Source: an uncultured Elusimicrobia bacterium
GTDB taxonomy: Bacteria; Elusimicrobiota; Endomicrobiia; DTEH01
DNA: 64,000 nucleotides
Assembly (NCBI GenBank): GCA_964561135.1
Contig: CAZLOB010000022.1
Coordinates: 5,718-69,717 of the forward strand
Direction: 5' to 3'
Position 1 is the stretch's first letter, and every line of letters starts with the position of its first letter. A program made the translations under genes and the position numbers. Below the pieces are notes generated by a model. The model was not told where the DNA came from, searched no databases, and worked only from the letters and a program-made list of their open reading frames with translations. Shown here one piece after another: positions 30,150 to 60,817 of this stretch.

Positions 30150-30150
30150 A

Positions 30151-31907: not shown

Positions 31908-31935
31908 AGTGCTTTTAAACCTCCTTATTGTAATT

Positions 31936-31965: not shown

Positions 31966-32006
31966 ATATCTAAATCAAAAAATATTTTCAATAAAAAACA
32001 AAAATA

Positions 32007-32741: not shown

Positions 32742-32789
32742 CTATGTATTGTTATATCTAACGAAATTTTGTAAAATAATAATAACAAT

Positions 32790-41597: not shown

Positions 41598-42182
41598 ATG
41601 AAAAATTTTATAATATTTTTTTTATCATACATAATTGGTGGTATCCCCACTGCATTTATATTAACTAAAATCTTTAAAGGAGTAGATATACGAACTGTTG
41701 GGTCAAAAAATCCTGGCACAACAAATGTGATACGTACAGCAGGATTTTTGTTAGGAGCAATAACATTTATCATAGATTTTTTGAAAGGAGGAATATCTAT
41801 ATTTATTACAAAAAAATATTTAGGATATGAATTTTTGCCACTAACAATGTTTTTTACCGTGCTTGGGCATACAACATCCCCTTTTCTTTCGTTTAAAGGG
41901 GGAAAAGGTGTTGCAACATTTTTTGGTTCGCTATTTGCAATTTCAACTAATATGTTTATATATAGCTGTATTTGTTTTGCAATTATATTTTTATTAACAC
42001 ATATTGTGTCAATATCTTCTATTGTTTCAGTATTTTTTTTCTTTTGGTATGTGTTGTTAAAAAATCCAGTTGAGTATCAAGACACAAAAATATTTTTTCT
42101 ATTAACAGTCTTATGGATAATCTATAGACACAAGTCAAATATCAAAAGGTTAATATTAAAAGAAGAAAAAAGGTTGTTTTAA
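41598..42182 (+). CDS. plsY: glycerol-3-phosphate acyltransferase PlsY
   Basis: GSKNPGTTNV and FKGGKGVAT motifs in a multi-TM protein. Confidence 0.9.
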   Translation: MKNFIIFFLSYIIGGIPTAFILTKIFKGVDIRTVGSKNPGTTNVIRTAGFLLGAITFIIDFLKGGISIFITKKYLGYEFLPLTMFFTVLGHTTSPFLSFKGGKGVATFFGSLFAISTNMFIYSCICFAIIFLLTHIVSISSIVSVFFFFWYVLLKNPVEYQDTKIFFLLTVLWIIYRHKSNIKRLILKEEKRLF

Positions 42183-42185
42183 AAT

Positions 42186-43190
42186 ATGAAAAACATTTTT
42201 ATAATAGGTGGAGGTTGTTGGGGGGCAACCTTAGCAACAATATATGCTAAGAAGGGATTAAAAATTACCATCTATGAACCTGTTTTGGAAAACTATAATT
42301 ATCTTAAACAACATCGTCACCCAAAATTTTTTAAGTATGTAAGTATCCCTGAAAATGTAAACATTACTAACGATGCGAATCAAATACAAAAAAATGATAT
42401 TGTTTTTTTAGTAATACCATCAATTTATGTGTTACCAATATTGAATAAATTTAAAAATGTAAATACTAAAGAAAAAATTTTTATTTCTTGTGTCAAAGGG
42501 TTTGAACCAAAAACTTTTAATTCTATCTCAAAAACAATTGCTGAAAGTTTAAAAATTAATAAAGAAAAAATTTTTGTCTTAAGTGGACCTTCTCATGCTG
42601 AAGAAGTTGCTATGGAAAAACCTACAGCAGTATCTTTAGCAGGAGTAAATAAGGATCTGCTTGTTAAATTACAAAAATTGTTAGCAACACAAATGTTAAG
42701 GATTTATGTCAATACAGACATTGTTGGGGTAGAAATAGCAGGAGCTGTGAAAAATATATATGCTATTGCTGCCGGCATCTGTGATGGTCTTAAGCTTGGT
42801 AATAATGCAAAAGCTGCTTTAATTACACGTTCATTAAAAGAAATGATATTAGTTGGCAACCTTTTCGGTGCAGAAACAAAAACCTTTTTTGGTTTATCAG
42901 GAATTGGTGATTTACTTACAACGGCTTATTCACCTTATTCAAGAAACCGTACTTTTGGCGAATATATTGCTAAATACAAAAACATAGAAAAAGCAAAACA
43001 AAAAATTCATACTTTTATCGAAGGTATCTACACTGTAAAAACAATTAATAAAATTGCAAAAAAATATTCTCTAGAGTTACCTATTGCAGAAGAAGTTTAT
43101 AAAATTATATATAAAAACAAACCGCCAGAACTTTCAATAAAATCTTTATTAACAAGACCGTTAAAAGAAGAGTTTAGTTGGTTAAAATGA
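42186..43190 (+). CDS. gpsA: NAD(P)H-dependent glycerol-3-phosphate dehydrogenase
   Basis: Rossmann motif GGGCWG, GPSHAEEV, GAVKNIYAIAAG and SRNRTFG. Confidence 0.9.
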   Translation: MKNIFIIGGGCWGATLATIYAKKGLKITIYEPVLENYNYLKQHRHPKFFKYVSIPENVNITNDANQIQKNDIVFLVIPSIYVLPILNKFKNVNTKEKIFISCVKGFEPKTFNSISKTIAESLKINKEKIFVLSGPSHAEEVAMEKPTAVSLAGVNKDLLVKLQKLLATQMLRIYVNTDIVGVEIAGAVKNIYAIAAGICDGLKLGNNAKAALITRSLKEMILVGNLFGAETKTFFGLSGIGDLLTTAYSPYSRNRTFGEYIAKYKNIEKAKQKIHTFIEGIYTVKTINKIAKKYSLELPIAEEVYKIIYKNKPPELSIKSLLTRPLKEEFSWLK

Positions 43191-43471
43191 ATAAAAATGA
43201 TTTAATTAAAATATTAACACAATATACTTTAACAAAAAATGATGCAAAAAAGTTTGTAAATATTATTTTTGACTCAATAAGAGATGCTTTGTTATCTGGT
43301 GAAAAAGTTGTGATACAAAACTTTGGTAGTTTTATTCCAAAATTTTATAAATCAAAAAGAATGTATAATCCAAAACAAAAAAAATACGTTGTATTAACAC
43401 CAAGAAAAAAAATAAAATTTACTCTTTCTAAAAAATTTTTTGCAGCGTTAAACTTAAAAGAAAAAAAGTAA
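43187..43471 (+). CDS. hup: HU/IHF-family DNA-binding protein
   Basis: MNKNDLI..., FGSF and a beta-arm with Pro (NPKQKKYVVLTPRKK). The start ATG 43187 overlaps the gpsA stop as ATGA. Confidence 0.85.
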   Translation: MNKNDLIKILTQYTLTKNDAKKFVNIIFDSIRDALLSGEKVVIQNFGSFIPKFYKSKRMYNPKQKKYVVLTPRKKIKFTLSKKFFAALNLKEKK

Positions 43472-43477
43472 GCAACT

Positions 43478-43840
43478 ATGACTGAAGAAAACAAACAACA
43501 TTACTATACTATCAAAGAGTTTGCAAAAAAAGTTGGTGTTGAAGAATATGTGTTAAGATACTGGGAAAGTGTATTTCCACAATTAAAACCTTTAAAAACT
43601 GAAAAAGGGCATAGAAGATATACAGACGAACATATACCTATTGTAGAAAAAATTAAAGAACTTATGTGGGAAAAAAAATATACTATTGAAGGAGCAAGAA
43701 AGGAATTAAAAGAATTTTTTTCTAAAAAGAAAAATGTGCAATCCACATTATTTTTAGATTTCCAAACTGCAGGTAATAAAAAAATATTAAACGAAATTAA
43801 AAGTGTTTTAGAAGAAATTTTAAAAATTCTTGAAGAATAG
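43478..43840 (+). CDS. MerR-family transcriptional regulator (short form)
   Basis: N-terminal MerR helix-turn-helix (YTIKEFAKKVGVEEYVLRYWE...GHRRYT) followed by a helical tail. Confidence 0.75.
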   Translation: MTEENKQHYYTIKEFAKKVGVEEYVLRYWESVFPQLKPLKTEKGHRRYTDEHIPIVEKIKELMWEKKYTIEGARKELKEFFSKKKNVQSTLFLDFQTAGNKKILNEIKSVLEEILKILEE

Positions 43841-43842
43841 AT

Positions 43843-44340
43843 ATGATAGAAAATCTTGTACAACTTTTTTCTAATTTACCAAAAGAAGTTGCAATAATAC
43901 TTATCTCAGCCATTCCTATAAGCGAACTACGTGGTGCTATACCGGTAGGTATTGGTATCTATAAGTTTAGTGTAACCAAAACATTAACTTTAGCAATAAT
44001 TGGTAATTTATCTTTTGTTATACCGTTCTTATGGTTTTTAAACAACTTACATTTGCATTTTATGAAATATTATTACTACAACAAATTTTTTACTTGGTGG
44101 TTCAGTAAAGTAAAGCCAAGAACAAAAAATATTAAAAAATATGAATATGTTGGACTAGCTTTGTTTGTTGCTATACCTTTACCTGTGACTGGTGCTTGGA
44201 GTGGATGTGTAGCAAGCTATCTTTTAGGATTAGACTTTTGGAAATCAGTTGTAGCTATATCAATAGGAGTTTTAATTGCAGCAATAATTGTGACCGTTAT
44301 CACTCTTGTTACTACACAAACTATTCAATTAATAATTTAA
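43843..44340 (+). CDS. small membrane protein of the putative small multidrug export family (COG2426-like)
   Basis: ISELRGAIPVGI motif and 4-5 TM segments. This is a family-level call only. Confidence 0.6.
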   Translation: MIENLVQLFSNLPKEVAIILISAIPISELRGAIPVGIGIYKFSVTKTLTLAIIGNLSFVIPFLWFLNNLHLHFMKYYYYNKFFTWWFSKVKPRTKNIKKYEYVGLALFVAIPLPVTGAWSGCVASYLLGLDFWKSVVAISIGVLIAAIIVTVITLVTTQTIQLII

Positions 44341-44342
44341 AA

Positions 44343-44419
44343 AGCGGGCGATGGGATTCGAACCCACGACCTTCTGCTTGGCAAGCAGACGTTCTTAAAC
44401 CAGGCTGAACTACGCCCGC
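44343..44419 (-). tRNA. tRNA-Gly (anticodon GCC)
   Basis: The reverse complement, GCGGGCGTAGTTCAGCCTGGTTTAAGAACGTCTGCTTGCCAAGCAGAAGGTCGTGGGTTCGAATCCCATCGCCCGCT, folds as a cloverleaf. It has a 7-bp acceptor stem, anticodon stem TCTGC/GCAGA, anticodon loop TTGCCAA and a GGTTCGAATCC T-arm. No CCA is encoded. Confidence 0.9.
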
Positions 44420-44512
44420 ATTTTCCTAGTTTTTTAATTTATAAAATCAATAAATAAAAGTCAATATTTTTGATTTTATTTCTAACAAATTTAAAACGAA
44501 AGGAGAAAAAAA

Positions 44513-46066
44513 ATGAAAAATGCTATAATAAGTGTATCAGATAAAACAAATTTAATAGAGTTTGCAAAAGAACTTAATAATATAGGAATAAAAATTTATT
44601 CAACTGGTGGAACTGCAAAAATTTTAAAAGAGCATAATATCAGTGTTATAGAAATATCTGAATACACTTCTTTTGCAGAAATTTTAGATGGAAGAGTTAA
44701 AACTTTACACCCAAAAATTCACGGTGGTATACTTGCAAAACGAAACAAACAAGAACATATGCAAGAGATTCAAAAATATAATATTACTCTTTTCGATCTT
44801 GTAGTAGTAAACCTTTATCCATTTGAAGAAACTCTACAAAAAACAAATGATGAAGAAGAAATTATTGAAAACATTGATATTGGGGGTGTTACACTTATTC
44901 GTGCAGCAGCAAAAAATTATAAAGATGTAGCTGTTGTTGTTGACTATAACGATTATCCCGAAGTTATACATAGAATCAAAAATAACACATTAGATTTAGA
45001 ATACAAAAAATATCTTGCAACAAAAGCATTTTTACATACTGCAAGATATGATTCTATAATCTCAAACTGGTTTGTTAAAACTTCAAAAAAAGAAGTTTTT
45101 GATTTTGAAGAAATATCTATCGGACTTAAAAAAGTGTCTAACTTAAGATATGGAGAGAATCCACATCAAAAAGCTGCTTTGTTCAAATTCGCGTCAAAAA
45201 CATCAAGTTTAGTTTCTGCAGAAAAGTTGCAAGGTAAAGAATTGTCATATAACAATTACTTAGATTTAGATTCAGCAATGAATATTGTAAAAAATTTTTC
45301 AAATCCTGCTTGTGTTATAATAAAACATAACAATCCTTGTGGTGTAGCAGAAGCAAATACTTTGTTAGATGCATATAAAAAAGCATTAAGTTGTGACCCT
45401 GTTTCTGCATTTGGTGGTATAATTGCTTTTAATTACGAAGTGGACGAAAATACTGCAAAAGAAGTTATTAACCTATTTACAGAATGTATAATTGCACCTG
45501 CGTATACACAAAAAGCAAAAGAAGTGTTCTCAAAAAAGAAAGATTTAAGATTATTAGTACTACCAGGGTTGATGAATTCAATAACAGAAGAAATTGAGTT
45601 TAGACAAATTGACGGTGGGATGCTTGTTCAATCAAAAGATTTAACTCTGTATAATGAACTTGTATATGTAACAAAACGGCACCCAACTGAACAAGAACTT
45701 AAAAGTTTAATTTTCGCGTTTAAAGTTGTAAAATATGTAAAATCAAATGCTATAGTGTTAGCAAAAGGAACACAAACTGTTGGTATAGGTGCGGGACAAA
45801 TGTCACGTATCGACGCGTTGAAAATTGCCACAATCAAAATGAACCAAATTGATAAAGAAATTTTAGAGTCGTTAAAGGAATATCCACTTGTTTTAGCATC
45901 GGATGCGTTTTTCCCGTTCAACGATGTTGTGAATGAAGCTGCAAAAATTGGTGTTTCTGCTATAATACAACCTGGTGGATCCGTACGAGATGCAGATTCT
46001 ATATCTTTAGCGAATGAATATAATATAGCTATGGTCTTTACCAAAACTCGCCACTTTAAACATTGA
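44513..46066 (+). CDS. purH: bifunctional AICAR formyltransferase / IMP cyclohydrolase
   Basis: Full-length PurH (ALISVSDKT-type N-terminus, GRVKTLHPKIHGGIL, YGENPHQ). An AAAGGAG RBS lies upstream. Confidence 0.95.
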   Translation: MKNAIISVSDKTNLIEFAKELNNIGIKIYSTGGTAKILKEHNISVIEISEYTSFAEILDGRVKTLHPKIHGGILAKRNKQEHMQEIQKYNITLFDLVVVNLYPFEETLQKTNDEEEIIENIDIGGVTLIRAAAKNYKDVAVVVDYNDYPEVIHRIKNNTLDLEYKKYLATKAFLHTARYDSIISNWFVKTSKKEVFDFEEISIGLKKVSNLRYGENPHQKAALFKFASKTSSLVSAEKLQGKELSYNNYLDLDSAMNIVKNFSNPACVIIKHNNPCGVAEANTLLDAYKKALSCDPVSAFGGIIAFNYEVDENTAKEVINLFTECIIAPAYTQKAKEVFSKKKDLRLLVLPGLMNSITEEIEFRQIDGGMLVQSKDLTLYNELVYVTKRHPTEQELKSLIFAFKVVKYVKSNAIVLAKGTQTVGIGAGQMSRIDALKIATIKMNQIDKEILESLKEYPLVLASDAFFPFNDVVNEAAKIGVSAIIQPGGSVRDADSISLANEYNIAMVFTKTRHFKH

Positions 46067-46076
46067 TAGATGAGAG

Positions 46077-46619
46077 ATGTTTAGAAAAACTTTTGTTTTT
46101 TTAAGAGTCTTAACTATATTTCTAGTATGTGTTTTACATGTTTTTTCAAAAGAGTTGCCAACAGAACTTTTGGGTTTCCAAATTAATACTGAATTAAAAA
46201 GTGTAAAAAAATCTGTACAATTAAAAAAAATCAAAAATTCGTTTGAAAAAGTTTACAAGGTTTTATATATTGAACAAAGTATTGAAACTTATCTTTATTT
46301 TTTTAATAAAAAAATTTACAAAATAATTATCTGTTTTTCTGAAAAAGTTTTTGACCAAGAAGATTGGGAAAATATTGTTAGCCAAGCAATTTCTTTGTAC
46401 GATAGACCTAAAAAAGTTTTTGTAACACACAAAAATGGTTTATCACAAGAAGTTTATCTTTGGGAAGATGAAAAAGTAAAATATATCTACAAAAAAGTTA
46501 GTAAAGAAAATAAAATACAGAATTTTAGTATAGAACTAGTAGATAAACATACTGAACAAAAAATAACACAATTGTCTTTTATAAAAAAGTTATATCTCAG
46601 ATTGATTAATTTGTTTTAA
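46077..46619 (+). CDS. hypothetical exported protein
   Basis: Signal-peptide-like N-terminus (MFRKTFVFLRVLTIFLVCVLHVFS). I recognise no family. The gene is tightly packed between purH and suhB. Confidence 0.5.
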   Translation: MFRKTFVFLRVLTIFLVCVLHVFSKELPTELLGFQINTELKSVKKSVQLKKIKNSFEKVYKVLYIEQSIETYLYFFNKKIYKIIICFSEKVFDQEDWENIVSQAISLYDRPKKVFVTHKNGLSQEVYLWEDEKVKYIYKKVSKENKIQNFSIELVDKHTEQKITQLSFIKKLYLRLINLF

Positions 46620-47532: not shown

Positions 47533-48192
47533 ATGAAACTGAAACAAATTAGTGAATTTTTACCACGGGAAAAACTTTTAAAATACAACAGACCCGATAA
47601 ACTCAAAAATGAAGAGTTGCTTGCTATCATCCTTAGAACTGGAACAAAAAATTACAATGTGTTAACTTTAGCAAAAAAAATTTTAAAACAATATGGTAAA
47701 GAATTACCTTATGTTTCAGTAAATGAGTTAAAAAATTTTTTAGGTATAGGTGAAGCACGTGCATGTAGTATTGTTGCATGTTTTGAACTTGGTAAACGTT
47801 TGTTAAGAGATAAAAAGACATATCTTTATCTTACACCGAAAGATGTATACGAACGACTTTCAGAATACAGAACAGCTAAAAAAGAATATTTTTTTGTGTT
47901 TTACCTCGACAGTAGAAACCAAGAAATAAAATGTGAAGTTGTAAGTGTTGGGATTTTAAATTCAAGTTTAGTACATCCAAGGGAAGTGTTTGAACCTGCA
48001 GTGAAACATCTTGCATGTCAGATTATTGTTGCACATAATCATCCATCAGGTTGTTTAGAACCGTCAAAAGATGATCTTGAGATTACACAACGTTTAATAA
48101 AAGCAGGTGAAATACTTGGTATAGAACTGTTAGATCATGTTATTGTTGCTAAAAACGGATATTTTAGTTTTAAAGAATATAAACTTATGTAA
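47533..48192 (+). CDS. radC: RadC-family (JAMM-like) protein
   Basis: HhH-like N-terminal region and the motif HNHPSG...PSKDD. Confidence 0.85.
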   Translation: MKLKQISEFLPREKLLKYNRPDKLKNEELLAIILRTGTKNYNVLTLAKKILKQYGKELPYVSVNELKNFLGIGEARACSIVACFELGKRLLRDKKTYLYLTPKDVYERLSEYRTAKKEYFFVFYLDSRNQEIKCEVVSVGILNSSLVHPREVFEPAVKHLACQIIVAHNHPSGCLEPSKDDLEITQRLIKAGEILGIELLDHVIVAKNGYFSFKEYKLM

Positions 48193-48216
48193 CAACAAAT
48201 TGTTGAGGTTAAACAT

Positions 48217-48414
48217 ATGAAAGAATGTAAAATAAATGAAAATCTTAAAATTTGTCCATGCAGTTATCCAGTGTGTTCCAGAAAAGGTATTTGTTGTGAA
48301 TGTTTGCATTACCACAGAGAAAGAGGGGAACTGCCAGCATGTTATTTTTCACCAAAAGTTGAAAAAACATACGACAGAAGTATCGAAAATTTTATAAAAA
48401 ATTATAAAAAATAA
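48217..48414 (+). CDS. small Cys-rich cytoplasmic protein (DUF6485-like)
   Basis: 65 aa with the pattern [27 protein letters not shown], recalled as a conserved uncharacterised family. A GAGG RBS-like sequence lies upstream. Confidence 0.5.
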
Positions 48415-48448
48415 TAAGTCTCCAAACAATCTAAAGGAAAACCAAAAA

Positions 48449-49295: not shown

Positions 49296-49838
49296 ATGAA
49301 CAACAATAAAGTATTGCTTCATATTTGTTGTGGAATATGCGCATTAGAATCTATAAATAGGTTACTACAGCAAAAGTATAAAGTTATAGGTTACTTTTAC
49401 AACCCTAACATTTATCCAAAAGAAGAATATCAAAAAAGATTACAAGTTGTTGAAAAAGTTGCTGAAATATACAATATTAAGATCATCTATGATAATTACG
49501 AACCTGAAGTTTGGCAAAAATTATGTGGACAATACGAAAGCGAACCTGAAGGGGGAAAAAGATGTTTATTGTGTTATGAATTAAGATTAAGAAAAACATA
49601 CAATACTATGGTAAAAGAAAATCTTGATTTATTCACTACGACACTTACTATAAGTCCACATAAAAAATCAAATATAATTTTTGAAATAGGTGAAAAAATT
49701 GGTGGTGAAAAATTTTTAAAAATTGATTTTAAAAAACATGACGGATTTAAAAAAACTATTGAACTAGCAAAACAATTCGAGTTTTATAGACAAAACTATT
49801 GTGGATGCAAATTTTCATTAAGAAAAACTATCTTATGA
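49296..49838 (+). CDS. queH: epoxyqueuosine reductase QueH (DUF208)
   Basis: Cys motifs HICCGIC, CLLCYELRL and the C-terminal NYCGC. I chose the start at ATG 49296. Confidence 0.8.
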   Translation: MNNNKVLLHICCGICALESINRLLQQKYKVIGYFYNPNIYPKEEYQKRLQVVEKVAEIYNIKIIYDNYEPEVWQKLCGQYESEPEGGKRCLLCYELRLRKTYNTMVKENLDLFTTTLTISPHKKSNIIFEIGEKIGGEKFLKIDFKKHDGFKKTIELAKQFEFYRQNYCGCKFSLRKTIL

Positions 49839-50575
49839 AAAAAACTAATCTTGTAGCAGTATTTACCTGCGAAAATATCAACAAACAATTATCTTTGCTT
49901 AAAAAATACAAAAATTTTATTGACAGCGTAGAAATAAGGGTTGACTCCTTTTATAAGAATAATAAAATCAAAGAAATACCAAATATTATAAAAAATATAA
50001 AAGATACTATACCAAAGATAAAAATTATTATAACATTCAGAAAACTTGAAGAAGGTGGTTGTGTAAAAGTTTATGAAAAAACAAGGCAATTTGTAATAAC
50101 AGAACTTTTAAAAAGTTCTCATCAATACATAAATTTCGTAGATATTGAATTTTTCTCTAAAATAAAAAATAAAATAATTAATCTAGCAAAAAAATATAAA
50201 AAAATTGTAATTTTATCGTTTCATAAATTAGACAAAAATTTTAAGCTAAATGAAGTAACAAAAATAATTAAAAAAATGCAAAAATTTGTTAATAGCAATA
50301 AAAAACACTGCATCATTAAAATAGTTGTTTATTGTGATTCATTATACAAATACATCGAGATCTTAAAAAGTGCTCACATTAAGCCAACAACGAAAACAAA
50401 AGTTTTTAAAAACATAAGCATTTTTTCTGTTGGCAAAACTTCGATACTTTCAAGGCTAATTTGTTTCGTTTTGGATATGCCGATTGTTTACGCTGCACTA
50501 TCAAAAGCAGTAATTAAAACACAGCCTACTATAAAACAGATTGTCAAAATAAAAAGACTTCTTGCCAACAACTAA
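49835..50575 (+). CDS. aroD: type I 3-dehydroquinate dehydratase
   Basis: The VEIRVD, TFRKLEEGG, VDIE, SFH and IKIV pattern of type I DHQase. The start ATG 49835 overlaps the queH stop as ATGA. Confidence 0.7.
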   Translation: MKKTNLVAVFTCENINKQLSLLKKYKNFIDSVEIRVDSFYKNNKIKEIPNIIKNIKDTIPKIKIIITFRKLEEGGCVKVYEKTRQFVITELLKSSHQYINFVDIEFFSKIKNKIINLAKKYKKIVILSFHKLDKNFKLNEVTKIIKKMQKFVNSNKKHCIIKIVVYCDSLYKYIEILKSAHIKPTTKTKVFKNISIFSVGKTSILSRLICFVLDMPIVYAALSKAVIKTQPTIKQIVKIKRLLANN

Positions 50576-50655
50576 ATTCTAAAAACTTAAACTTAAAATG
50601 ACGATTTAAAACTTAATCCGGCTATTGAATTTAACCAAATTTTAATCTAATTTTA

Positions 50656-50683
50656 AGTTCCTATAAGATATATTATGTTAATT
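50656..50683. other. dif: candidate dif site (XerC/XerD chromosome dimer resolution site)
   Basis: AGTTCCTATAAGATATATTATGTTAATT matches B. subtilis dif at 23/28 positions and E. coli dif at 21/28, with the XerD arm matching 10/11. It lies in the only long intergenic gap, at the convergent gene-orientation switch. Confidence 0.7.
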
Positions 50684-50859
50684 TATATTTTTTGAATGAT
50701 ACTTTAAAATAAAGACGAAAAATTACGAAAAAACGAAATCATAAAACAAAAATTAATGTAATAGTTTAAATTCGAATAAAAATAAAAATTAAAGTAATAC
50801 TTGAAAATAGAAATTGCAAAAATTGTAAAACTTGCAGCTTCAAAAAAGAAACTTGCAAG

Positions 50860-51606
50860 TTAAACTTTTGTAATAATGGAAAGTAAGCGGTAAGAAGTGG
50901 CATTTTTTCTAAAAGAAAAGAAAAGGTCATCATGAAAAGTACAAAAACCAGTGTTAATAATCTGCTGTTTTGAAAAACCGAAATTTAAAAGTTTTTTAAA
51001 AAGTATATCAAATAAAGAAAATTTCTCCCCATCTACATAATAACAATTCCCGCAAATATGAGGGCCTGCTATAAATAGAGTATCTTTTAAAGAAAAAGAA
51101 AGAGTATTTAGTTTCTCAAAAAGACATTCTATTATACCTTTTTGCAATCCTATTCTTCCAATATGAACAAGTCCAAACCAGCTGTTTTCTATATCCACAA
51201 CAAATAAAGGGATACAATCGGCTGTAAAAATAGCAATAATTTCTTTATTATTTTTAGAAATTATGCCATCTGTATGTAGAATTATTTTATAGTCAACCAC
51301 AAAATTTTTGAATTGTAGTTTACCAAAATAACCTTCAAAATCTGACTGATTGGTTTCTATTATTTTATTATCGTGTATTTGCTCGCACATTACCACAACT
51401 TTGTTTAAAAATATACTTGGATATTTAGTAGCAAAAGAGTACAAAGAAAGGGTTTTTTCTTTAGAAATAAAAGGGATAAAAGGAATAGACAAGTTAGCTT
51501 CTTTGGTTTCAGATATTAAATTCTTTGTTGTAGTAAGTAACAAAAAATCTTTTATTTTAAAAGATATATAATCACAATTTTCTTCATAGCTAATCATTTT
51601 CCACAA
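50860..51606 (-). CDS. pgeF: YfiH/PgeF-family (DUF152) purine nucleoside phosphorylase / peptidoglycan editing factor
   Basis: Family motifs TADCIPLFVVD, HIGRIG and HICGNCY. Confidence 0.8.
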   Translation of the reverse strand: MWKMISYEENCDYISFKIKDFLLLTTTKNLISETKEANLSIPFIPFISKEKTLSLYSFATKYPSIFLNKVVVMCEQIHDNKIIETNQSDFEGYFGKLQFKNFVVDYKIILHTDGIISKNNKEIIAIFTADCIPLFVVDIENSWFGLVHIGRIGLQKGIIECLFEKLNTLSFSLKDTLFIAGPHICGNCYYVDGEKFSLFDILFKKLLNFGFSKQQIINTGFCTFHDDLFFSFRKNATSYRLLSIITKV

Positions 51607-51613
51607 ATTCTTC

Positions 51614-52735
51614 TTAAAAACGTTCTATTATATGAGATGGCCCTCCTCCTGATTCTATACCTTTTATTGCTAACATAAGTTCCTCTGGACTTGAAGCTGC
51701 TTGTAACGCATCTTCTAACGATACTAATCCTTTTTTGAATAATTCTAACAATGCTTGGTTAAATGTTTGCATACCGTAAATTTTTCCTTGTTTCATCAAG
51801 TTTATAATATCACCCAAATTTTTTTCTTCTATACATTTTTTAACAGCTGGAGTAACTACCAAAACTTCTACTGCAGGAATTAACCCTTTTTTATCTTTTC
51901 TTGGTAGCAATCTTTGAGAAATAATACCTTTTAAAGTATCGGCAAGTTGTAAACGTACTTGGTTCTGTTGGTGTGGTGGAAATATATCTATTATTCTATT
52001 TATTGTTTGAACTGCATCAACAGTGTGAACTGTTGAAAGAACAAGATGGCCAAGTTGTGCTGCAGTAAGTGCAGCTTGCATTGTTTCAAGATCTCTCATC
52101 TCTCCAATTAAAATTACATCCGGATTTTGTCTAACAACATGTCTTAATGCTGAAACAAAAGATGTTGTATCATAAGGCACTTCTCTTTGTGATATAATCG
52201 ACTTTTTATCTTTATATACAAACTCTATAGGATCCTCAATCGTTATAATATGTGCAGGACGTGTAGAATTGATATAATCGATCATACATGCAAGTGTTGT
52301 TGATTTTCCTGAGCCTGCAGGCCCTGTAACAAGAATAAACCCACGGACATTCTCTGCAAGTTTATAAACGACTTCCGGCAAATTTAGTTCTTCTCTATTT
52401 GGTATTTGGAAAGGTATACGTCTTATAGCTATATTTATTACACCACGTTGATAAAATATATTCATTCTTAAACGAGCAATATTCTCAAAATTGTATCCTA
52501 TATCACACTCTTTCTCTAATTCAAACCTTTTTTGTTGTTGTGGCGTAGTTATATAAAGAACAAAATTTTCAATATCTTCTTTAGAAAGTATAAATTGTTG
52601 ATCTTCAATTGGCTGTAATATTCCATTTATTCTAACATATGGTACACATTCACTTCTTAAATGTAGATCGCTAGCATTAGTTTCCAAAAATTTTCTTATT
52701 ATATTAAATATTTTTTCAATATTTTTATCACTCAT
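51614..52735 (-). CDS. pilT: PilT-family type IV pilus retraction ATPase
   Basis: ASDLHL N-terminal motif, Walker A GPAGSGKST, the GEMRD Asp box and the His box TVHT. Confidence 0.9.
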   Translation of the reverse strand: MSDKNIEKIFNIIRKFLETNASDLHLRSECVPYVRINGILQPIEDQQFILSKEDIENFVLYITTPQQQKRFELEKECDIGYNFENIARLRMNIFYQRGVINIAIRRIPFQIPNREELNLPEVVYKLAENVRGFILVTGPAGSGKSTTLACMIDYINSTRPAHIITIEDPIEFVYKDKKSIISQREVPYDTTSFVSALRHVVRQNPDVILIGEMRDLETMQAALTAAQLGHLVLSTVHTVDAVQTINRIIDIFPPHQQNQVRLQLADTLKGIISQRLLPRKDKKGLIPAVEVLVVTPAVKKCIEEKNLGDIINLMKQGKIYGMQTFNQALLELFKKGLVSLEDALQAASSPEELMLAIKGIESGGGPSHIIERF

Positions 52736-52738
52736 AAA

Positions 52739-53851
52739 CTACCTCAACACACGTAATTTACCAGTTCTAAAAAACTTTTGTTGGATTTCTTTTTCTTCTA
52801 AAATAGCATCTTCTTTATCTACAACTATTTCGGTTTTGGTACGTAACGATCTTAATGTTTTTTTAGATTTTGTTTTTTCAACCATTTGGAACCCACTTGC
52901 GATAATCGTAACTTCAACTTTATCTTCAAAATCATTAGAATTTACATATCCTATATAAGTCACGACTTCTTTATCCATATAATGTTGTAAATATTCAAAC
53001 GCATTATAAACATCGTGCCCTGTTATATTTTTCCCACAAATATTTACTAACAAATTTTTTGCACTACGAATATCAAATTCTATAAATGGATTATTCATAG
53101 CATTTTTTATTGCTTTTTTTAAACAGCTTTCAGCACTTGCTTTTTCTACACCATACGACATAATTATCTGGCCTGCATTTTTTAATACATTTCTTGCATC
53201 AGCATAATCAACATTGACATACCCTGGTTGTGTCACAACTTTCCACATACTTAACACCGCTTTGTGTAAAACATCATCTGCTAATCTATATAAAACTTCA
53301 CCAAAACTTAAATTAGGATACATTTCTAAAAATTTATTGTTTGGTATAGTCAATAAAGCATCAACATATTTTTTTAATTCTGTGATTCCTGTAATTGCAT
53401 TATCCATTCTTATTTTTCCTTCGAAGTCGAAAGGTTTTGTTACAACAGCCACTGTTAAAACACCCAATTCTTTAGCCACTCTTGCAATAACAGGTGTTGC
53501 ACCAGTCCCCGTCCCTTTCCCCATACCACAGGTTAAAAACACCATATCTGTATGTGTCAATAAGTCACGAATTATATCTATTGATTCTTCCGCAGCCTGT
53601 TTCCCAACAAGCGGATCTCCTCCAGACCCTTGTCCTTTTGTAGTTTTTGGACCTATATGTATAACAATTGGCGCTTTTGACTCTTTTAAAGCTTGCAGAT
53701 CTGTGTTGATAGCGATCATTTCTACAGAAGGATCAATAAGACCAGCAGTAGCGATTCTATTTATAGCGTTCCCTCCTGCACCACCAATCCCCATTATTTT
53801 TATTCTTACAGGATATTTTTTTGTAACAATATTGTCATCCATAGAAATCAC
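52739..53851 (-). CDS. ftsZ: cell division protein FtsZ
   Basis: GIGGAGGNAINR, NTDLQAL, GMGKGTGTGATPV, VVTKPFDFEG and NVDYAD. The conserved ftsQ-ftsA-ftsZ order is present. Confidence 0.95.
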   Translation of the reverse strand: MISMDDNIVTKKYPVRIKIMGIGGAGGNAINRIATAGLIDPSVEMIAINTDLQALKESKAPIVIHIGPKTTKGQGSGGDPLVGKQAAEESIDIIRDLLTHTDMVFLTCGMGKGTGTGATPVIARVAKELGVLTVAVVTKPFDFEGKIRMDNAITGITELKKYVDALLTIPNNKFLEMYPNLSFGEVLYRLADDVLHKAVLSMWKVVTQPGYVNVDYADARNVLKNAGQIIMSYGVEKASAESCLKKAIKNAMNNPFIEFDIRSAKNLLVNICGKNITGHDVYNAFEYLQHYMDKEVVTYIGYVNSNDFEDKVEVTIIASGFQMVEKTKSKKTLRSLRTKTEIVVDKEDAILEEKEIQQKFFRTGKLRVLR

Positions 53852-55143
53852 TCCCCAAAAAAACTCCAGATTTTACGAAAGAAACCTTTTATCCCTTTTG
53901 ACTGTTTTTTCCCTTTAAAAGGTTTTTTTTGACTTTCTATTTCGTATTTTATCAAACTTATTGAAGTAGTATAAGAAAAATTAGAAATAATATCTTCATC
54001 TCCCACAATAGAACTCTCCATACCTACATTTCCTGCACGAACATCAATACTTTCTTCAAGATCACTATATTCACTTTTTAACAACTCACGTAACGCGTCA
54101 GTAATACCCACCAAATTTCCCCCACCACCTGCTAAAACAACATCTCCATACTGTAGTGCTAACTCAACATAATGAATTTTTTTCAACTCGGGGATAACAA
54201 TGTCTAAAAAAATCTTTTCAATAACTTCAGCAATAATTTTTGCTATTTCTTTTTTTGTTGTAGTTCTAATATTTTTACCATCTCTGGATGGTATCTCAAC
54301 TTGTTCATCTTTTTTCACTGATGACGGTTGTGCAACACCATAACGACGTTTTATATTCTCTGCTACATTCCAAGATGTTTTATAATAAGCTGCAATTTCT
54401 CTCGTTATAAGGTCCGCTCCTAAATCAATATCTTTACTTTGAAACTCTCTACAATATCTTATGCATCCACCTAAATATACCACAGTCCCTATTGATTGTC
54501 CACCAAAATCTATTACTAAACAACCTAAATTACGTTCTTCAGCTTCCGTAACCAACTGTGCTAAAGAAATTAAACCATAATGTAAATTATCAATTACATA
54601 ACCAGCTTCCGTAAAAGTTCGTTCTATGTTCCTTATAAAACTTGAATATCCAACAATTGCATAAGCTTTTACTTCTAGAATACTTCCTTCCATATTAACA
54701 GGATTTGAAATTCCAGGTTGACCATCGATAATATACTCTTGAGGTATAATATTCATTATTAAACGATCATTCGAAATTCTTAAATTTTTTACTGCATGTT
54801 CAATAACTTTTTCTTGATCTTCAAAAGTAATTGTTCGATCAGTTGAGGTAATAGGAATTTGTGCTGAAGTTTCATAAGTACTTACAAACGGCCCTCTCAC
54901 ACCAACAATAAGTTTTGTCCTTTCAACTTTTGCCATATCTTCTAATGATGAAATCAACTCGTTTATAAGAGCAGCACTTCTCTCAATATCTTTAATTACA
55001 CCTGCAGAAATTGCTTCTTTATCGACTAACTGTTTACCTGCAATAATTTCTATAATTTCTTGTTCAGGATCGTACTTTCCTAAAACACCTGTAACACAAC
55101 CTGAACCTATATCAACCCCACAATAAATTTCTTCTTTTGGCAT
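53848..55143 (-). CDS. ftsA: cell division protein FtsA
   Basis: Actin-fold motifs (GVDIGSG, DFGGQS, LAGGGG) and a C-terminal amphipathic helix (GIKGFFRKIWSFF). Confidence 0.9.
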   Translation of the reverse strand: MPKEEIYCGVDIGSGCVTGVLGKYDPEQEIIEIIAGKQLVDKEAISAGVIKDIERSAALINELISSLEDMAKVERTKLIVGVRGPFVSTYETSAQIPITSTDRTITFEDQEKVIEHAVKNLRISNDRLIMNIIPQEYIIDGQPGISNPVNMEGSILEVKAYAIVGYSSFIRNIERTFTEAGYVIDNLHYGLISLAQLVTEAEERNLGCLVIDFGGQSIGTVVYLGGCIRYCREFQSKDIDLGADLITREIAAYYKTSWNVAENIKRRYGVAQPSSVKKDEQVEIPSRDGKNIRTTTKKEIAKIIAEVIEKIFLDIVIPELKKIHYVELALQYGDVVLAGGGGNLVGITDALRELLKSEYSDLEESIDVRAGNVGMESSIVGDEDIISNFSYTTSISLIKYEIESQKKPFKGKKQSKGIKGFFRKIWSFFGE

Positions 55144-55199
55144 TTTTATTCTCCAAAAAAGAAATTATTTAAAATTTTTAAATATAAAATTATTAAGTT

Positions 55200-55970
55200 T
55201 TATTCAATATATGCCTTTCCATAGGATAATAACTGTGTATAAATTCTTGTGTTTTTATCAAATTTATATTTTATCAATTTAGATAGCATCTCTTTTTTTA
55301 CATTCTCAAATTTTTTGTCAACAATAAAATAAAGAATACAATTATCTTCCTCTCCACGGACACAAACAACATATTTATTGTTTTCTTTTCTAATTTTTTC
55401 AACTTTATCCCAAACATTAGCTTCACTAAATTTTTGATAGATAATCTTTAATGTTGGAATATCCACTTCGCCTTCTATATATGGCAGTTTAGCTAAATTA
55501 ATTTTTCTAGCATCATAAACTTTATACCATTTTATATCACTGGACAGAAACAAAATTCCATCATCAATTCCCTTTTTGTAACCTATTGGAGAAAAAGTAT
55601 GAATTTTAATTTTTAAAGGTTTTGTTGGAAAAAACATAATTTTTATCTCTTTAATTTCAGGAAAAACTTTTTGTAGTTTAAGAATATTTTTTTTATAATT
55701 AAAAACATCAAGATGTTCCGCATTTAGTTGTTTATAAATAATTTCGTCTGGTACTGTTGATTTGTTCTCGCATAAGTATACTTTTTGTATTTTAAAAACT
55801 TCATACTTAAAAACTTCATACAAAGATTTAACTTTACTTATTTTATAAACAACAAAAATCAAAATTGTTAAACAAGCTGTAGCCAATAAAAATCTGAAAA
55901 CAATTTTAAATTTTTTCTTTTTCTTATTTTTTTTCTTTACCAAAATGTTGAATGAATAATATCTACTCAT
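55200..55970 (-). CDS. ftsQ: cell division protein FtsQ/DivIB-like
   Basis: A basic N-terminus, a single TM helix and a POTRA-like region. Its position between ddl and ftsA supports the call, but sequence similarity is weak. Confidence 0.7.
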   Translation of the reverse strand: MSRYYSFNILVKKKNKKKKKFKIVFRFLLATACLTILIFVVYKISKVKSLYEVFKYEVFKIQKVYLCENKSTVPDEIIYKQLNAEHLDVFNYKKNILKLQKVFPEIKEIKIMFFPTKPLKIKIHTFSPIGYKKGIDDGILFLSSDIKWYKVYDARKINLAKLPYIEGEVDIPTLKIIYQKFSEANVWDKVEKIRKENNKYVVCVRGEEDNCILYFIVDKKFENVKKEMLSKLIKYKFDKNTRIYTQLLSYGKAYIE

Positions 55971-56925
55971 ATTTTTTAAATGACACGAAGACTATTTTTC
56001 TTACAAGCTCAGCAAAAGATATACCTTGATACTTAGCAGCTTCAGGCAATAAAGATGTCTCAGTCATACCAGGGACAGTGTTTACTTCTAACACATATGG
56101 TATTTTTTTTCTTTCATCAAAAATAGTATCTACTCTGCACAAAATTTCACACCCTATTAATTTTGCAGTTTTCAAAGCAATATTTTTAATTTTTTCATAT
56201 GAAATTTTATCAATTCTTGGTGGTATTAAATGTTGTGATCCCCCAGGCTGATATTTTGATTTATAGTCATAAAATCTGTTTAACTTTGGGATGATTTCTA
56301 TCAAAGGTAAAACTTCACCATCTAAAATAGGGACAGTTATTTCTTTTCCATTTATAAATTTTTCTATAATAATAACATTATCATACTTTAACGCATTTTT
56401 TACTGCAGGAATTAAATTTTTGTAATTATTCACGATAGAAGTGCCAATAGTTGAACCCTCACGTGCAGGTTTCACTACTAATGGAAAACCAAAATTTTTT
56501 TCTTTAACGAAATAAAAATTTTTTTCATCAATATCTTTTTTAATTTTAGAAAAGTTTAATACTTTAAAATCAGGTGTGGGTATTCCGTTATCTTTTAATA
56601 AAAGTTTTGTAAGATATTTATTCATTCCTATCATTGACGCTTCAACACCACAACCAGTATATTTAAGCCCTATATTCTCAAGTAACATTTGCAATTTACC
56701 ATCTTCACCAAATTTTCCATGTAATGCTATAAAAATAATATCGACTTTTTTCTTTTTTAATTTAAGTAATTGATTTACACAATGTTCTTTTTTAATATCA
56801 ATTAAAGAAACTTTAAAATCCTGCCATTTAGATAAGTTGTTAAACACAGCTTTACCAGTTTTCAAACTTATTTCTCGTTCAGAAGAGAAGCCACCACACA
56901 GTACCGCTATTTTGATCTTCCTCAT
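55963..56925 (-). CDS. ddl: D-alanine--D-alanine ligase
   Basis: ATP-grasp enzyme with the CGGFSSEREISL, ALHGKFGEDG and EVNTVPGMT motifs. Confidence 0.9.
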   Translation of the reverse strand: MRKIKIAVLCGGFSSEREISLKTGKAVFNNLSKWQDFKVSLIDIKKEHCVNQLLKLKKKKVDIIFIALHGKFGEDGKLQMLLENIGLKYTGCGVEASMIGMNKYLTKLLLKDNGIPTPDFKVLNFSKIKKDIDEKNFYFVKEKNFGFPLVVKPAREGSTIGTSIVNNYKNLIPAVKNALKYDNVIIIEKFINGKEITVPILDGEVLPLIEIIPKLNRFYDYKSKYQPGGSQHLIPPRIDKISYEKIKNIALKTAKLIGCEILCRVDTIFDERKKIPYVLEVNTVPGMTETSLLPEAAKYQGISFAELVRKIVFVSFKKYE

Positions 56926-57854
56926 TATAACTCTACCCCAACAAAAGTTATTTCAGGCTGAAGTTCAATTTTATATTTTTCTTTCACAACTTTGATAATA
57001 TGCCGGATAAGATTTACAAAATCTTCACAAGTAGCATTATTTTTGTTTATAATAAAATTTGCATGTTTTTCTGAAACACAAGCCCCACCAATTGAAAAAC
57101 CTTTTAGTCCAGCAGATTCTATTAACTTTGCAGCAGTAAGTTCTGTTTCATATGGATTTTTAAAGATACAGCCAGCGTTAAAAGTACCTAAAGGTTGTGT
57201 CTGTATACGTTGAAGTAAAGCTTCGTTAAGCCGTTTTTTAATTAATTCTTTATCTTCTTTTTTAAGGCGAAAATGAGCAGATACAACTACATACTTGTTT
57301 TGTAACCCACTATTTCTGTATCCAAAATCTATCTGTTCTTTATACAATTTTATTATTCCTTGTTCAGGATCATCAATTTTAACAACTTCAATATATTCTA
57401 AACAATCAGATATTGTAGCTGTTTTTGTTCCAGCATTCATTATTATAGCGCCACCAACACTACCCGGTATTCCAAAAAGTTCTTCTAATCCAGATAAAGA
57501 ATGTTCTACAGTTGTATTTATCAATGAAGGTAACATCGTGGCTGAATATGCAATAACTTTTTCTTCTTCTATATTTACTGTAGAAAAATCTTTCTTTAGT
57601 TTAATTACAACACCATCAAAACCTTTGTCAGAAACTAACAAGTTTGACCCTGCACCAATGACAAAAATTTTTTCGTTATAAAATTTTATTATGGATAAAA
57701 CATCAATAAGTTGCGATATATTTTCTACATAGACAAAATATTTCGCAGGACCACCTATGTTTAATGTTGTGTGTTTATTTAACTTTTCATTAAGAACTAC
57801 ATTAATATTATGTTTTTTAAATGTTGTTATTATCTTATCTCCCATAATATTCAA
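56925..57854 (-). CDS. murB: UDP-N-acetylenolpyruvoylglucosamine reductase
   Basis: FAD-binding domain (TLNIGGPA, GAGSNLL) and a GCIFKNP-type motif in the C-terminal domain. Confidence 0.9.
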   Translation of the reverse strand: MNIMGDKIITTFKKHNINVVLNEKLNKHTTLNIGGPAKYFVYVENISQLIDVLSIIKFYNEKIFVIGAGSNLLVSDKGFDGVVIKLKKDFSTVNIEEEKVIAYSATMLPSLINTTVEHSLSGLEELFGIPGSVGGAIIMNAGTKTATISDCLEYIEVVKIDDPEQGIIKLYKEQIDFGYRNSGLQNKYVVVSAHFRLKKEDKELIKKRLNEALLQRIQTQPLGTFNAGCIFKNPYETELTAAKLIESAGLKGFSIGGACVSEKHANFIINKNNATCEDFVNLIRHIIKVVKEKYKIELQPEITFVGVEL

Positions 57855-59223
57855 TTAATTTATCTGCAATTTTGTATACATCACCTGCACCTAAAGTTAA
57901 AACAACGCTATCTTCAGCTAAATTTTTTAGATAGTTTACCAATCTGTCAAAATTATACATTTCAACATTATAACCATTTTTTACAAACTCGTCATATACT
58001 AATTTTATATTCACTCCTTCTATTGGTTTTTCATTAGCAGGATATATTTGTACAAGGAAAACTTTATCTTTATGTGAAAAAGCTTTCGGAAATTCTTTAT
58101 AAAGAAGTTGTGTACGTGTGTATCTATGTGGTTGGAAAACAACAACTATTTTTTTATTATTTGTTTTTATTCTTAATGTTTGAAGAGTATAATAAATTTC
58201 GGTTGGATGATGACCATAATCATCATAAACATCAATTACCTTATCATCAATAGCTATTTGCCCTTTAAATTCAATTCTACGTTTTATACCATCAAAACTT
58301 TCCAAAGCAGATTTTATATCTGAAAAATTAAACCCGCAAACAATACCTAAAGAAATTGTTGCTAACGCGTTCAATACGTTATGAATACCAGTCGTATTTA
58401 ACAATACTTTCCCTACCAATTTGTCATTTTTATATACTACAAACCTTGAAAAATTTGGTTTTAACTCAATATTTTTTGCAACAAAGTCATTGTTTCCATT
58501 TTTTATTCCATAAGTGTAATATTTTCTTTTAATTTTAGGTAATAACGAACAAATTCTTTTATCATCTCCATAAAGAATACTAAAGCCATAAAACGGAACA
58601 GAATTGAAATGTTGTAAAAACGCTTGTTTTAGATTATTCATAGATCCATAGTTGTCTAAATGGTCATTATCTATATTTGTGCAAACAACAATATAAGGTG
58701 ACAGATGTAAAAAAGAGCCATCACTTTCATCCGCTTCAACAACAATAAATTTACCCTTTCCAATTTTTGCTGACGAACCAATGTTTTTTAATATCCCACC
58801 GACAACTATTGTGGGATCATATCCACATTGTTGTAGTAGTAATCCTATCATTGAAGTTGTTGTTGTTTTTCCATGTGTACCACAAATACTTATTGTATAT
58901 TTCATTCTTGCAATTTCTACTAACATTTCAATACGAGGAATCACAGGAATGTTTCTTTTCTTTGCAGCAACTATTTCAGGATTATTCTCTTTTATTGCCG
59001 TGGAATAAACAACAACATCTACATCATTAACATTAGTAGCTTTATGGCCAATAAAAACTTTTGCACCTAATTTTTTTAATCTCTCTATCACGACAGAATT
59101 TTTTATATCAGACCCTGAAACTTGATATCCCAAATTAAGCAAAACTTCTGCGATACTGCTCATCCCACTGCCACCAATACCAATAAGATGTACTTTTTTT
59201 ACTTTATTAAATATTTCCTCCAT
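57835..59223 (-). CDS. murC: UDP-N-acetylmuramate--L-alanine ligase
   Basis: GIGGSGMS, GTHGKTTTT and full-length Mur ligase architecture. Confidence 0.95.
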   Translation of the reverse strand: MEEIFNKVKKVHLIGIGGSGMSSIAEVLLNLGYQVSGSDIKNSVVIERLKKLGAKVFIGHKATNVNDVDVVVYSTAIKENNPEIVAAKKRNIPVIPRIEMLVEIARMKYTISICGTHGKTTTTSMIGLLLQQCGYDPTIVVGGILKNIGSSAKIGKGKFIVVEADESDGSFLHLSPYIVVCTNIDNDHLDNYGSMNNLKQAFLQHFNSVPFYGFSILYGDDKRICSLLPKIKRKYYTYGIKNGNNDFVAKNIELKPNFSRFVVYKNDKLVGKVLLNTTGIHNVLNALATISLGIVCGFNFSDIKSALESFDGIKRRIEFKGQIAIDDKVIDVYDDYGHHPTEIYYTLQTLRIKTNNKKIVVVFQPHRYTRTQLLYKEFPKAFSHKDKVFLVQIYPANEKPIEGVNIKLVYDEFVKNGYNVEMYNFDRLVNYLKNLAEDSVVLTLGAGDVYKIADKLIEYYGR

Positions 59224-59225
59224 TT

Positions 59226-59624
59226 TTATTTTGACTCTCTTTTAACTATAGTTTTAATACCACCACGAAGGTTAAACTCAAGTTCTACATACAACCATTT
59301 TGGTTTTAACAATTTATTTAAATCTTCAAAAATTTGGTTCACTGCGGACTCGTGTACAATATGTACATTGCGATAACTTTGAATGTAATACTTTAGAGAC
59401 TTTAACTCAACACATACTTTATTTGGTACATATTTTATTCTAAGTGTTGCAAAATCGGGAAGGTTATTCCATGGACATAAACATGTAAATTCTTGCGTTT
59501 CAATTTCTATTGTTATATCTTTCCCTTTATATTCGTATTCTAGTGGTATTAACAACTCTGGCGAAATTTTATCAAATTTCACTGACAAATTCTTTATTCT
59601 ATCATATAATTCTACTTTTTTCAT
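59226..59624 (-). CDS. queF: NADPH-dependent 7-cyano-7-deazaguanine (preQ0) reductase, unimodular type
   Basis: Catalytic Cys context [13 protein letters not shown] and the QueF motif ELKSLKYY. The start overlaps the upstream stop as TAATG. Confidence 0.85.
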
Positions 59625-60817
59625 TAATTAAAAATTTCTGTTACAATAAATTTTAAATATTCTGTTTCATCTTTCATCGGAAAATATATAGGATGATCTT
59701 CTGATTGTGTCCCATAATATATTATAAAACCTTTTTGTTCGTTTTTCAACATAGAAGATAAAATCAACTCTTCTATATCTTCCAACGAAATGTGTCTACT
59801 GCACACAGAAAAAGCTAAAAGTCCGTTGTTTGTTAACAATTTCATAATCTGTGATAAGACAAATTTATATTTCTTTTTTGCAGGATTAACATCTTTATCA
59901 GATTTTGCATATGATGGTGGATCAAAAATTATTAAATCAAACTTTGTTTTATTCTCTTGGATGAAATCTTCAATTTTTGCGCAAACAAACTCAACTTTGA
60001 CTTTATTTATTTTAGCATTTTCTTTTGCAAGTTCTATCGCATATGAAGACGAATCTACACCAATAACATTCTTGCAACCTGATAAAGCACAAATTACACC
60101 AAATGAACCTGTATAACAGCATAAATCAAGAACATTTTTATCATTAGCGATACAAGATATATATTTTCTGTTTTCAAATTGATCATAATAAAAACCTGTT
60201 TTTTGCCCATTTAAAACATCAACAACAAATTTTGCATTCAAATGTTCAATAACAGTTATTAATTCATTAGTAATTTTATTTTTTGAATAAACAACTTCTT
60301 TATATTTTGGTGCGACTTCAAGTTCTCGTTGGTAAATATCGTTGTTTACAACAATAAATTTTGGATTAAAAATATCTATTAAACAACTAAAAATTTCGTT
60401 TTTAAACAACTCCATTGCATAAGAAAAAAACTGTATAACAAAAATATCTCCGTATCTATCTATTACTACACCCGGTAAAAAATCACTCTCTCCATAAACA
60501 ATTCTACAGTACTTTATATTTATTCCATACTTCTTTCTTCTTTCTATTGCATTCTTTATTCTTTTATAAAAAAAATCTTTATTGATTTTTTCCTCTCTTC
60601 TTTGTGAAAGAATACGAATAGAAATTAAAGAATGTGGATTATATACACCTTTACACAAAAAATTATCTTTGTGATCATATACTTCGACAAAAGAAATTTG
60701 TTTTGTTAAGTTTTTATGTTCAATTTCATTAGAAAAAATCCATAAGTATCCATTTTTAACTCTGTTTTTAAATTGTTTTGAAACTTTAATTTTTATAGGT
60801 TCAACATAATTATTCAT
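59624..60817 (-). CDS. RlmI-like PUA-domain class I SAM-dependent (cytosine-C5) RNA methyltransferase
   Basis: N-terminal PUA-like region, the QKTGFYYDQ motif, FDPPSY and a catalytic-type Cys (SVCS). At about 397 aa it matches RlmI/RlmK-type enzymes. Confidence 0.8.

Follow-up and report, generated by a model that had tools for sequence, protein, structure and literature searches.

Introduction

Two blocks of genes pointing towards each other meet in the genome of an uncultured Elusimicrobia bacterium, and between them lies a 28-bp sequence that resembles dif, the site at which chromosome dimers are resolved. The locus raises the question of whether this sequence is the chromosome's own dif, of the kind recombined by XerC and XerD, and whether the meeting point of the two gene blocks belongs to the terminus of replication. 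The two halves of the question are linked by position: dif lies at the terminus, where the co-directional bias of genes flips.

The XerCD recombinases are present in this phylum (Kono 2011, PMC3025954; Izawa 2016, PMC5174739). A unique dif was predicted in 641 strains chosen for their XerCD orthologues, including Elusimicrobium minutum (Kono 2011, PMC3025954), and another was predicted near the terminus of Ca. Endomicrobium trichonymphae, where a 200-kb inversion has been described around dif (Izawa 2016, PMC5174739).

A sequence-only reading of the DNA studied here had proposed that the 28-mer is the chromosome dimer resolution site and that the window, by which we mean the whole stretch of 64,000 nucleotides analysed, probably spans the replication terminus. 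The first proposal is supported by the match to known dif sites, by the conservation of the site as an island in related genomes, by its single occurrence in the contigs examined and by its non-coding position between convergent genes. We conclude, with a probability of about 0.9, that the site is the chromosomal dif of an uncultured low-GC Elusimicrobiota/Endomicrobiia-like bacterium and that it lies in the replication terminus region.

Results

The dif-like site lies between two long, convergent gene arms

The 28-mer is found in the longest non-coding gap of the window, 284 nt between two convergent genes (50576-50859). The gap is bordered on the left by a gene for a type I 3-dehydroquinate dehydratase (aroD-like, 49799-50575, plus strand), which is the last gene of the plus-strand arm and is syntenic in relatives, and on the right by a pgeF/YfiH-like gene (Cu-oxidase_4, 50860-51597, minus strand), the last gene of the minus-strand arm and the tail of a cluster made up of pilT and dcw genes (ftsZ, ftsA, ddl, murB and murC). 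The site is non-coding, 80 nt past the aroD-like stop and 176 nt past the pgeF-like stop. Within the 284-nt gap we found no Rfam match that would indicate an RNA gene, no credible small ORF and no canonical GC-rich terminator. This gap had been described as the only long non-coding one of the window; it is indeed the longest, but a second gap (48193-48448) is nearly equal at 256 nt, and contains a small called gene in relatives.

The earlier description of about 50 kb of almost exclusively plus-strand genes meeting 13 kb of exclusively minus-strand genes is accurate. The left arm (1-50575) carries 50 housekeeping genes on the plus strand and two on the minus strand, and all 15 genes of the right arm (50860-64000) are on the minus strand, so that about 97% of the genes of the window are co-oriented. 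The left arm includes pst/phoU, prfB, aro genes, ispH, prfA, murA, his, leu and ilv genes, folD, scpB, mutS, mutL, miaA, hflX, plsY, gpsA, purH and others, and the right arm pilT, ftsZ, ftsA, a gene in the position of ftsQ, ddl, murB, murC and genes of the queuosine pathway. The only left-arm genes on the minus strand are panC and trxA (30670-31907). They are part of a stretch of odd composition (27000-33000; GC about 25%, skew near zero or negative), which holds a gene for a 727-aa HEAT-repeat protein (27966-30149) in addition to panC (30670-31590) and trxA (31587-31907). Elsewhere in the left arm, prfB (3220-4342, plus strand) has an apparent programmed +1 frameshift: a short ORF starting at the ATG at 3220 ends in GGAGATTTT CTT TAA C (3292-3298) and ORF 3281-4342, in the +1 frame, supplies the RF2 body, the in-frame stop being UAA instead of the usual UGA.

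No integrase, phage or plasmid genes were found within the 64-kb window, and neither a Xer recombinase nor FtsK was among its 50 Pfam-scanned proteins. Seven further genes (41598-46619) were annotated solely via the Pfam matches of their orthologues in the relative L006, with no recombinase among them. A tblastn search with E. coli XerD (an approximate query) gave no match in the window or in the loci of the lineage; its matches came solely from Bacilli- and Tenericutes-type loci. The lineage DNA examined did not yield an FtsK gene either.

The 28-mer has the layout of dif and matches Firmicutes dif better than expected by chance

On re-reading, the letters previously quoted for the 28-mer proved exactly right. 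The site, AGTTCCTATAAGATATATTATGTTAATT (50656-50683, plus strand), consists of an XerC-type arm, AGTTCCTATAA (50656-50666), a central region, GATATA (50667-50672), and an XerD-type arm, TTATGTTAATT (50673-50683), and thus has the 11-6-11 dif architecture, with a conserved XerD arm resembling TTATGTTAAAT. A position-by-position recount returned the same numbers as before: 23/28 identities to B. subtilis dif (nine in each arm and five in the centre), 21/28 to E. coli dif and 10/11 between the XerD arm and its canonical counterpart. The XerC arm matches that of E. coli at 7/11 positions only. We additionally counted 24/28 identities to S. aureus dif, as listed in Kono 2011, and only 20/28 to the dif predicted for E. 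minutum. The two arms of the site are asymmetric, with 7/11 positions mutually palindromic, which fits a system of two recombinases.

The host genome has a GC content of about 29%, and the significance of such matches was assessed by simulating the window 200 times with a first-order Markov model and recording the best match to each reference dif. A match of 23/28 to B. subtilis dif was reached in 0/200 simulated windows (the maximum was 22, in 2/200), and a match of 21/28 or better to E. coli dif in 5/200 (2.5%). No chance match of the quality seen here is expected in the host's base composition. Because 21/28 or better arises in five simulations at 29% GC, the likeness to E. coli dif would by itself be weak evidence, barely above chance in DNA this rich in AT; the Firmicutes-type similarity is convincing. 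The window contains no second copy of the 28-mer with up to three mismatches, and its next-best match to either B. subtilis or E. coli dif is 19/28. With the predicted E. minutum dif as query, a chance match of 22/28 was found inside a gene at 60820, which indicates that AT-rich reference sites are poor discriminators on their own.

The arms of the site are conserved in relatives

The strongest evidence for dif is the conservation of the site across relatives. Apart from metagenome assemblies, the only source of identical or near-identical copies of the locus is one NCBI assembly (GCA_000404505.1), and the footprint was taken from eight distinct relatives, all uncultured Elusimicrobiota/Endomicrobiia contigs (L122 is an uncultured Elusimicrobia sp. 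and L099 is Endomicrobia bacterium SKYB98), whose PgeF proteins are 37-86% identical to that of the window. The order ftsA-ftsZ-pilT-pgeF, dif, aroD-queH is kept in 8/8. The site is identical at 28/28 positions in L006 (PgeF 86% identical), L148 (57%), L008 and L122 (both 55%), and all 26 of the 26 bases present are identical in L007 (58%), where the contig ends inside the site. It is kept at 27/28 positions in L009 (40%) and in L011 (37%), each with a single change in the 6-bp centre, and at 25/28 in L099 (38%), where a G of the XerC arm is replaced by C and two bases of the centre differ. The XerD arm is thus invariant in 8/8 relatives, the XerC arm is changed at one base in one of them, L099, and the centre is changed in L009, L011 and L099. 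Mean column identity over the whole aligned gap, site included, is 66-67%, and outside the site identity is down to about 60%. The arms of dif are under purifying selection, and the centre and flanks are not. With its XerD arm unchanged, its XerC arm nearly so and its centre more variable, the site fits the pattern described for dif across phyla, in which conservation is higher in the XerD arm than in the XerC arm and the centre varies more freely (Kono 2011, PMC3025954).

The block conserved in all relatives of the lineage is slightly longer than the 28-mer, since it includes an A before it and TA after it (50655-50685, plus strand); the three extra bases may owe their conservation to chance in an AT-rich genome. 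The site is single-copy in every lineage contig examined. The most distant PgeF homologue (P0010, 31% identical) was non-syntenic and uninformative.

The neighbourhood of the site is less stable between strains. Contig L001 follows the window with 99.6% identity between 56006 and 47413 and then passes abruptly into unrelated genes (Glyco_transf_9, a YchF-like GTPase and LigA beyond about 47413), and L006 has, relative to 48153-48182 of the window, a 1.8-kb insertion encoding a TPR/PMT_2 protein; together these point to strain-level rearrangement within 2.5-3.2 kb of dif. In addition, contigs end at or near dif in 2/8 lineage relatives (L007 inside the site, L148 69 nt past it), and a contig end lies within about 125 nt of the site in 8 of the at least 120 matches of the scan described below (L049, L063, L076, L080, L114, L118, L119 and L131). 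It is our impression that contig ends are commoner near dif-like sites than expected; they may reflect a coverage trough, strain heterogeneity or mobile elements at the terminus.

Skew and gene orientation both change at the site

The cumulative G-C curve of the window has its maximum at 50086, 570 nt (0.6 kb) from dif, and the cumulative A-T curve at 51239. Plus-strand GC skew changes across dif from about +0.1 to about -0.2; it is mostly between +0.05 and +0.25 in the left arm and between -0.14 and -0.32 in the right arm. The same flip from positive to negative is seen at the site in L001, L006, L008, L009 and L122. The right arm could be extended with a QueC-based metagenome scan, which returned three close relatives (L143, L137 and L140; 84-88% identical) in which this arm runs about 10 kb further with all genes co-oriented and a skew of 0.16-0.30. 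The co-oriented arms therefore total at least 50 kb on the left and, with the relatives included, at least 23 kb on the right.

The GC skew here largely tracks the coding strand: panC and trxA, which oppose the other genes of the left arm, are positively skewed when read on their own strand, and intergenic DNA lacks the expected flip (+0.01 on the left and +0.16 on the right, both from small samples). As skew follows the coding strand, its flip at dif is not independent of the flip in gene orientation. The proposal that the window probably spans the terminus is nonetheless supported locally, by 50 kb of plus-strand genes meeting 13 kb of minus-strand genes in an arm that continues in relatives, and on this local evidence, namely the G-C maximum at 50086 and the orientation flip at the gap, dif occupies the position expected at a terminus.

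The same class of motif marks skew flips in other phyla

A scan of 185,579 species genomes for TTCCTATAA-N6-TTATGTTAA returned the core motif in at least 120 stretches, with one match in each and each from a different assembly. Among the matches listed, the phyla and groups represented include Bacteroidota, Bacilli and Mollicutes, Omnitrophota, Planctomycetota, Acinetobacter and Elusimicrobiota. Skew was tested, by a measure that is independent of the strand read, at the 62 loci among the matches listed with at least 1.5 kb on both sides of the motif. It dropped across the motif in 53/62 of these testable loci (sign test p = 1e-8), with a positive left and a negative right side in 34 loci and the reverse in two. 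In two complete chromosome records the motif is located at 47% and 46% of the record length, positions that would be antipodal to the origin provided that the records begin there. Among the matches listed, the core motif behaves as dif.

In 11 loci (L017, L018, L019, L034, L041, L042, L044, L057, L102, L123 and L124), which come from MAGs labelled as Bacilli, Tenericutes or Clostridiales, the dif-like site has a gene for a full-length XerD homologue, 36-41% identical to the E. coli protein, no more than a few kb away; this linkage was not seen in the Elusimicrobiota lineage. One 4.2-kb viral contig fragment (IMGVR_UViG_3300027811_000065; L145, 570-596) carries the sequence AAGTTCCTATAATACATGTTATGTTAATTA, both arms of which equal those of the dif described here. 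It may belong to a Xer-exploiting element, or be host DNA in a viral bin.

A palindrome is kept at a fixed distance from the XerD arm

Apart from the site, conservation in the gap is patchy and confined to the pgeF side, i.e. the side of the XerD arm; the aroD side, next to the XerC arm, is not conserved. The most evident feature on the pgeF side is a 17-bp palindrome, TTAAAGTAATACTTGAA (50789-50805; consensus TTAAAGTAWTACTTTAA), separated by 105 nt from the XerD arm; between it and dif are another two conserved boxes. A weaker second copy of the palindrome, TTAATGTAATAGTTTAA (50753-50769), lies 36 nt upstream of the main one and is conserved solely in the closer relatives; the two copies are contained in a 36-nt direct repeat (50743-50776 and 50779-50812). 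The distance from the palindrome to the XerD arm is fixed at 105-117 nt in all relatives (L006, L007, L008, L009, L011, L099, L122 and L148), and that to the pgeF stop is anything between 3 and 57 nt. Across about 220 kb of DNA from the lineage, the palindrome is essentially confined to the dif gap, the exceptions being two matches with one or two mismatches inside the aroD genes of L009 and L099, and none of the dif loci from 118 assemblies of other phyla among the matches listed contains it.

RNAalifold, applied to both strands, predicted as its sole structure a weak hairpin of 7 bp (-2.6 kcal/mol) formed by the palindrome, in which the relatives show one compensatory and two disruptive changes. 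On the strand of the pgeF transcript the palindrome is often followed by a T-rich run, so that the ordinary reading takes it for a putative terminator of pgeF/dcw transcription. Its conservation at the level of sequence and its fixed spacing to dif leave room for a role as a candidate protein-binding site. The wider idea that dif and the conserved sequence on its XerD side together form a module of about 150 nt, with a putative protein-binding palindrome, is one that we hold doubtful; if it were true, a protein specific to the lineage could bind the palindrome and act at the terminus, for example in fork arrest, in terminus organisation or in the control of Xer.

Discussion

We interpret the 28-mer as a classical XerCD-type dif, probably situated at the terminus. 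By analogy with E. coli and B. subtilis, XerC-type and XerD-type tyrosine recombinases would bind the left arm, AGTTCCTATAA, and the right arm, TTATGTTAATT, respectively, on each of the two dif copies within a chromosome dimer. A septum-anchored FtsK translocase would bring these copies together and activate XerD; strands would then be exchanged in two successive steps at the borders of the 6-bp centre, which would convert the dimer to monomers at division. The XerC, XerD and FtsK proteins of this genome are assumed in this scheme.

The alternatives to this interpretation differ in how much of it they would leave standing. The dif could be real and conserved and the strand switch still be a local convergence of operons or the boundary of an inversion, the true terminus being elsewhere. 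Such an arrangement would be in keeping with a right arm that covers 13 kb only in the window and consists largely of the dcw cluster and queuosine genes, with a skew that tracks the coding strand, with the strain-level rearrangements 2.5-3.2 kb from dif, and with the fact that the termination point and dif need not exactly coincide (Kono 2011, PMC3025954). It is at odds with the continuation of the right arm, co-oriented and strongly skewed, for about 10 kb further in three close relatives, and with a left arm of about 50 kb that has two opposed genes only; moreover, this class of motif sits at plus-to-minus skew flips in 53/62 loci across phyla, among the matches listed, and the pgeF-dif-aroD arrangement survives deep divergence. 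We therefore think it improbable that the terminus is elsewhere. There is also little to recommend the idea that the site serves a single recombinase, in the manner of XerS/difSL or XerH/difH, rather than XerC and XerD. XerCD has been replaced in some lineages, and no recombinase gene turned up in the DNA examined from this genome, but the 31 bp of difSL are only weakly similar to classical dif and adjoin the gene of their dedicated recombinase, xerS (PMC1914069), whereas the site described here matches classical dif strongly, has a canonical XerD arm (10/11) and arms that are asymmetric (7/11), and has no recombinase gene within 50 kb on one side and 13 kb on the other.

Two further readings would deny that the site is the chromosome's own dif at all. 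It is very hard to reconcile the data with an integrated element exploiting Xer (an IMEX, with its attL or attR) or with a plasmid-type Xer site: no second dif-like site in the 64 kb is better than 19/28, conserved housekeeping genes flank the site on both sides in 8/8 relatives, and the window is free of phage, plasmid and integrase genes, even if contigs break at or beside the site in L007 and L148, a near-identical site is carried by one viral contig, and the one-sided conserved flank of the core loosely resembles accessory sequences. With syntenic housekeeping flanks and no second site above 19/28, the locus does not have the make-up of an IMEX integration. Finally, the site could be a chance AT-rich look-alike without function, given that dif is AT-rich, that the genome has 29% GC and that 21/28 matches to E. 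coli dif arise in 2.5% of simulated windows. This last reading is effectively refuted by the conservation pattern, in which the site forms a near-invariant island across relatives despite a diverged gap, and the 23/28 match to B. subtilis dif, which none of the 200 simulated windows reached, also speaks against it. The reading that we retain is hence that of a chromosomal, XerCD-type dif in the terminus region.

Such a site is a reliable landmark of the terminus in an uncultured and poorly studied lineage, and can be used to orient and scaffold MAG contigs, in coverage-based estimates of growth and to spot Xer-exploiting mobile elements. It is an ordinary landmark and brings no new biology, since dif sites are routinely predicted from similarity, conservation and skew, and this phylum already has such predictions. 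What retains some interest is only the palindrome module, which is specific to the lineage and keeps a fixed spacing to the XerD arm.

Comparison with known systems

The one-sided conservation around the site recalls the Xer sites cer and psi, in which a core site is also accompanied by conserved sequence on one side. The cer and psi sites are carried by plasmids, and accessory sequences of about 180 bp on the XerC side bind PepA together with ArgR or ArcA and make recombination FtsK-independent. The site described here is, in contrast, chromosomal, with its conserved boxes on the side of the XerD arm and no conservation in the flank beside the XerC arm, and is accordingly not of the plasmid cer/psi type. 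The difSL/XerS system of streptococci and lactococci is likewise a chromosome dimer resolution site at the terminus. The locus does not correspond to a XerS/difSL module, as its similarity to classical dif is strong and no recombinase gene is nearby.

The dif of E. coli, GGTGCGCATAATGTATATTATGTTAAAT, recombined by XerC and XerD with FtsK, shares with the site 10/11 positions of the XerD arm, the inner ATAA/TTAT symmetry and the location at the convergence of the replichores; it is unlike it in the XerC arm (7/11 only) and overall (21/28). Within the phylum, the dif predicted for E. minutum Pei191, ACTAACGATAATTTTTATTATGTCAATT (Kono 2011, Additional file 2), is identical at 20/28 positions only. 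The site resembles the predicted dif of E. minutum in its ...CAATT/TAATT end, and has in common with that site and with the one predicted in Ca. Endomicrobium trichonymphae its predicted role near the terminus.

The closest counterparts are the dif sites of Firmicutes (B. subtilis, ACTTCCTAGAATATATATTATGTAAACT; S. aureus, ACTTCCTATAATATATATTATGTAAACT), which are recombined by CodV/RipX (XerC/XerD). The site differs from these in having G instead of C at position 2, a centre that begins with G and a right arm with the gamma-proteobacterial GTTAA instead of GTAAA, and its host is a diderm Elusimicrobiota bacterium. It shares with them the 28-bp, 11-6-11 layout, 23/28 (B. subtilis) and 24/28 (S. 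aureus) positions, the TTCCTA..AA of the left arm and a non-coding location at the terminus, and it is the Firmicutes dif profile that was found to transfer best to Elusimicrobia (Kono 2011, PMC3025954).
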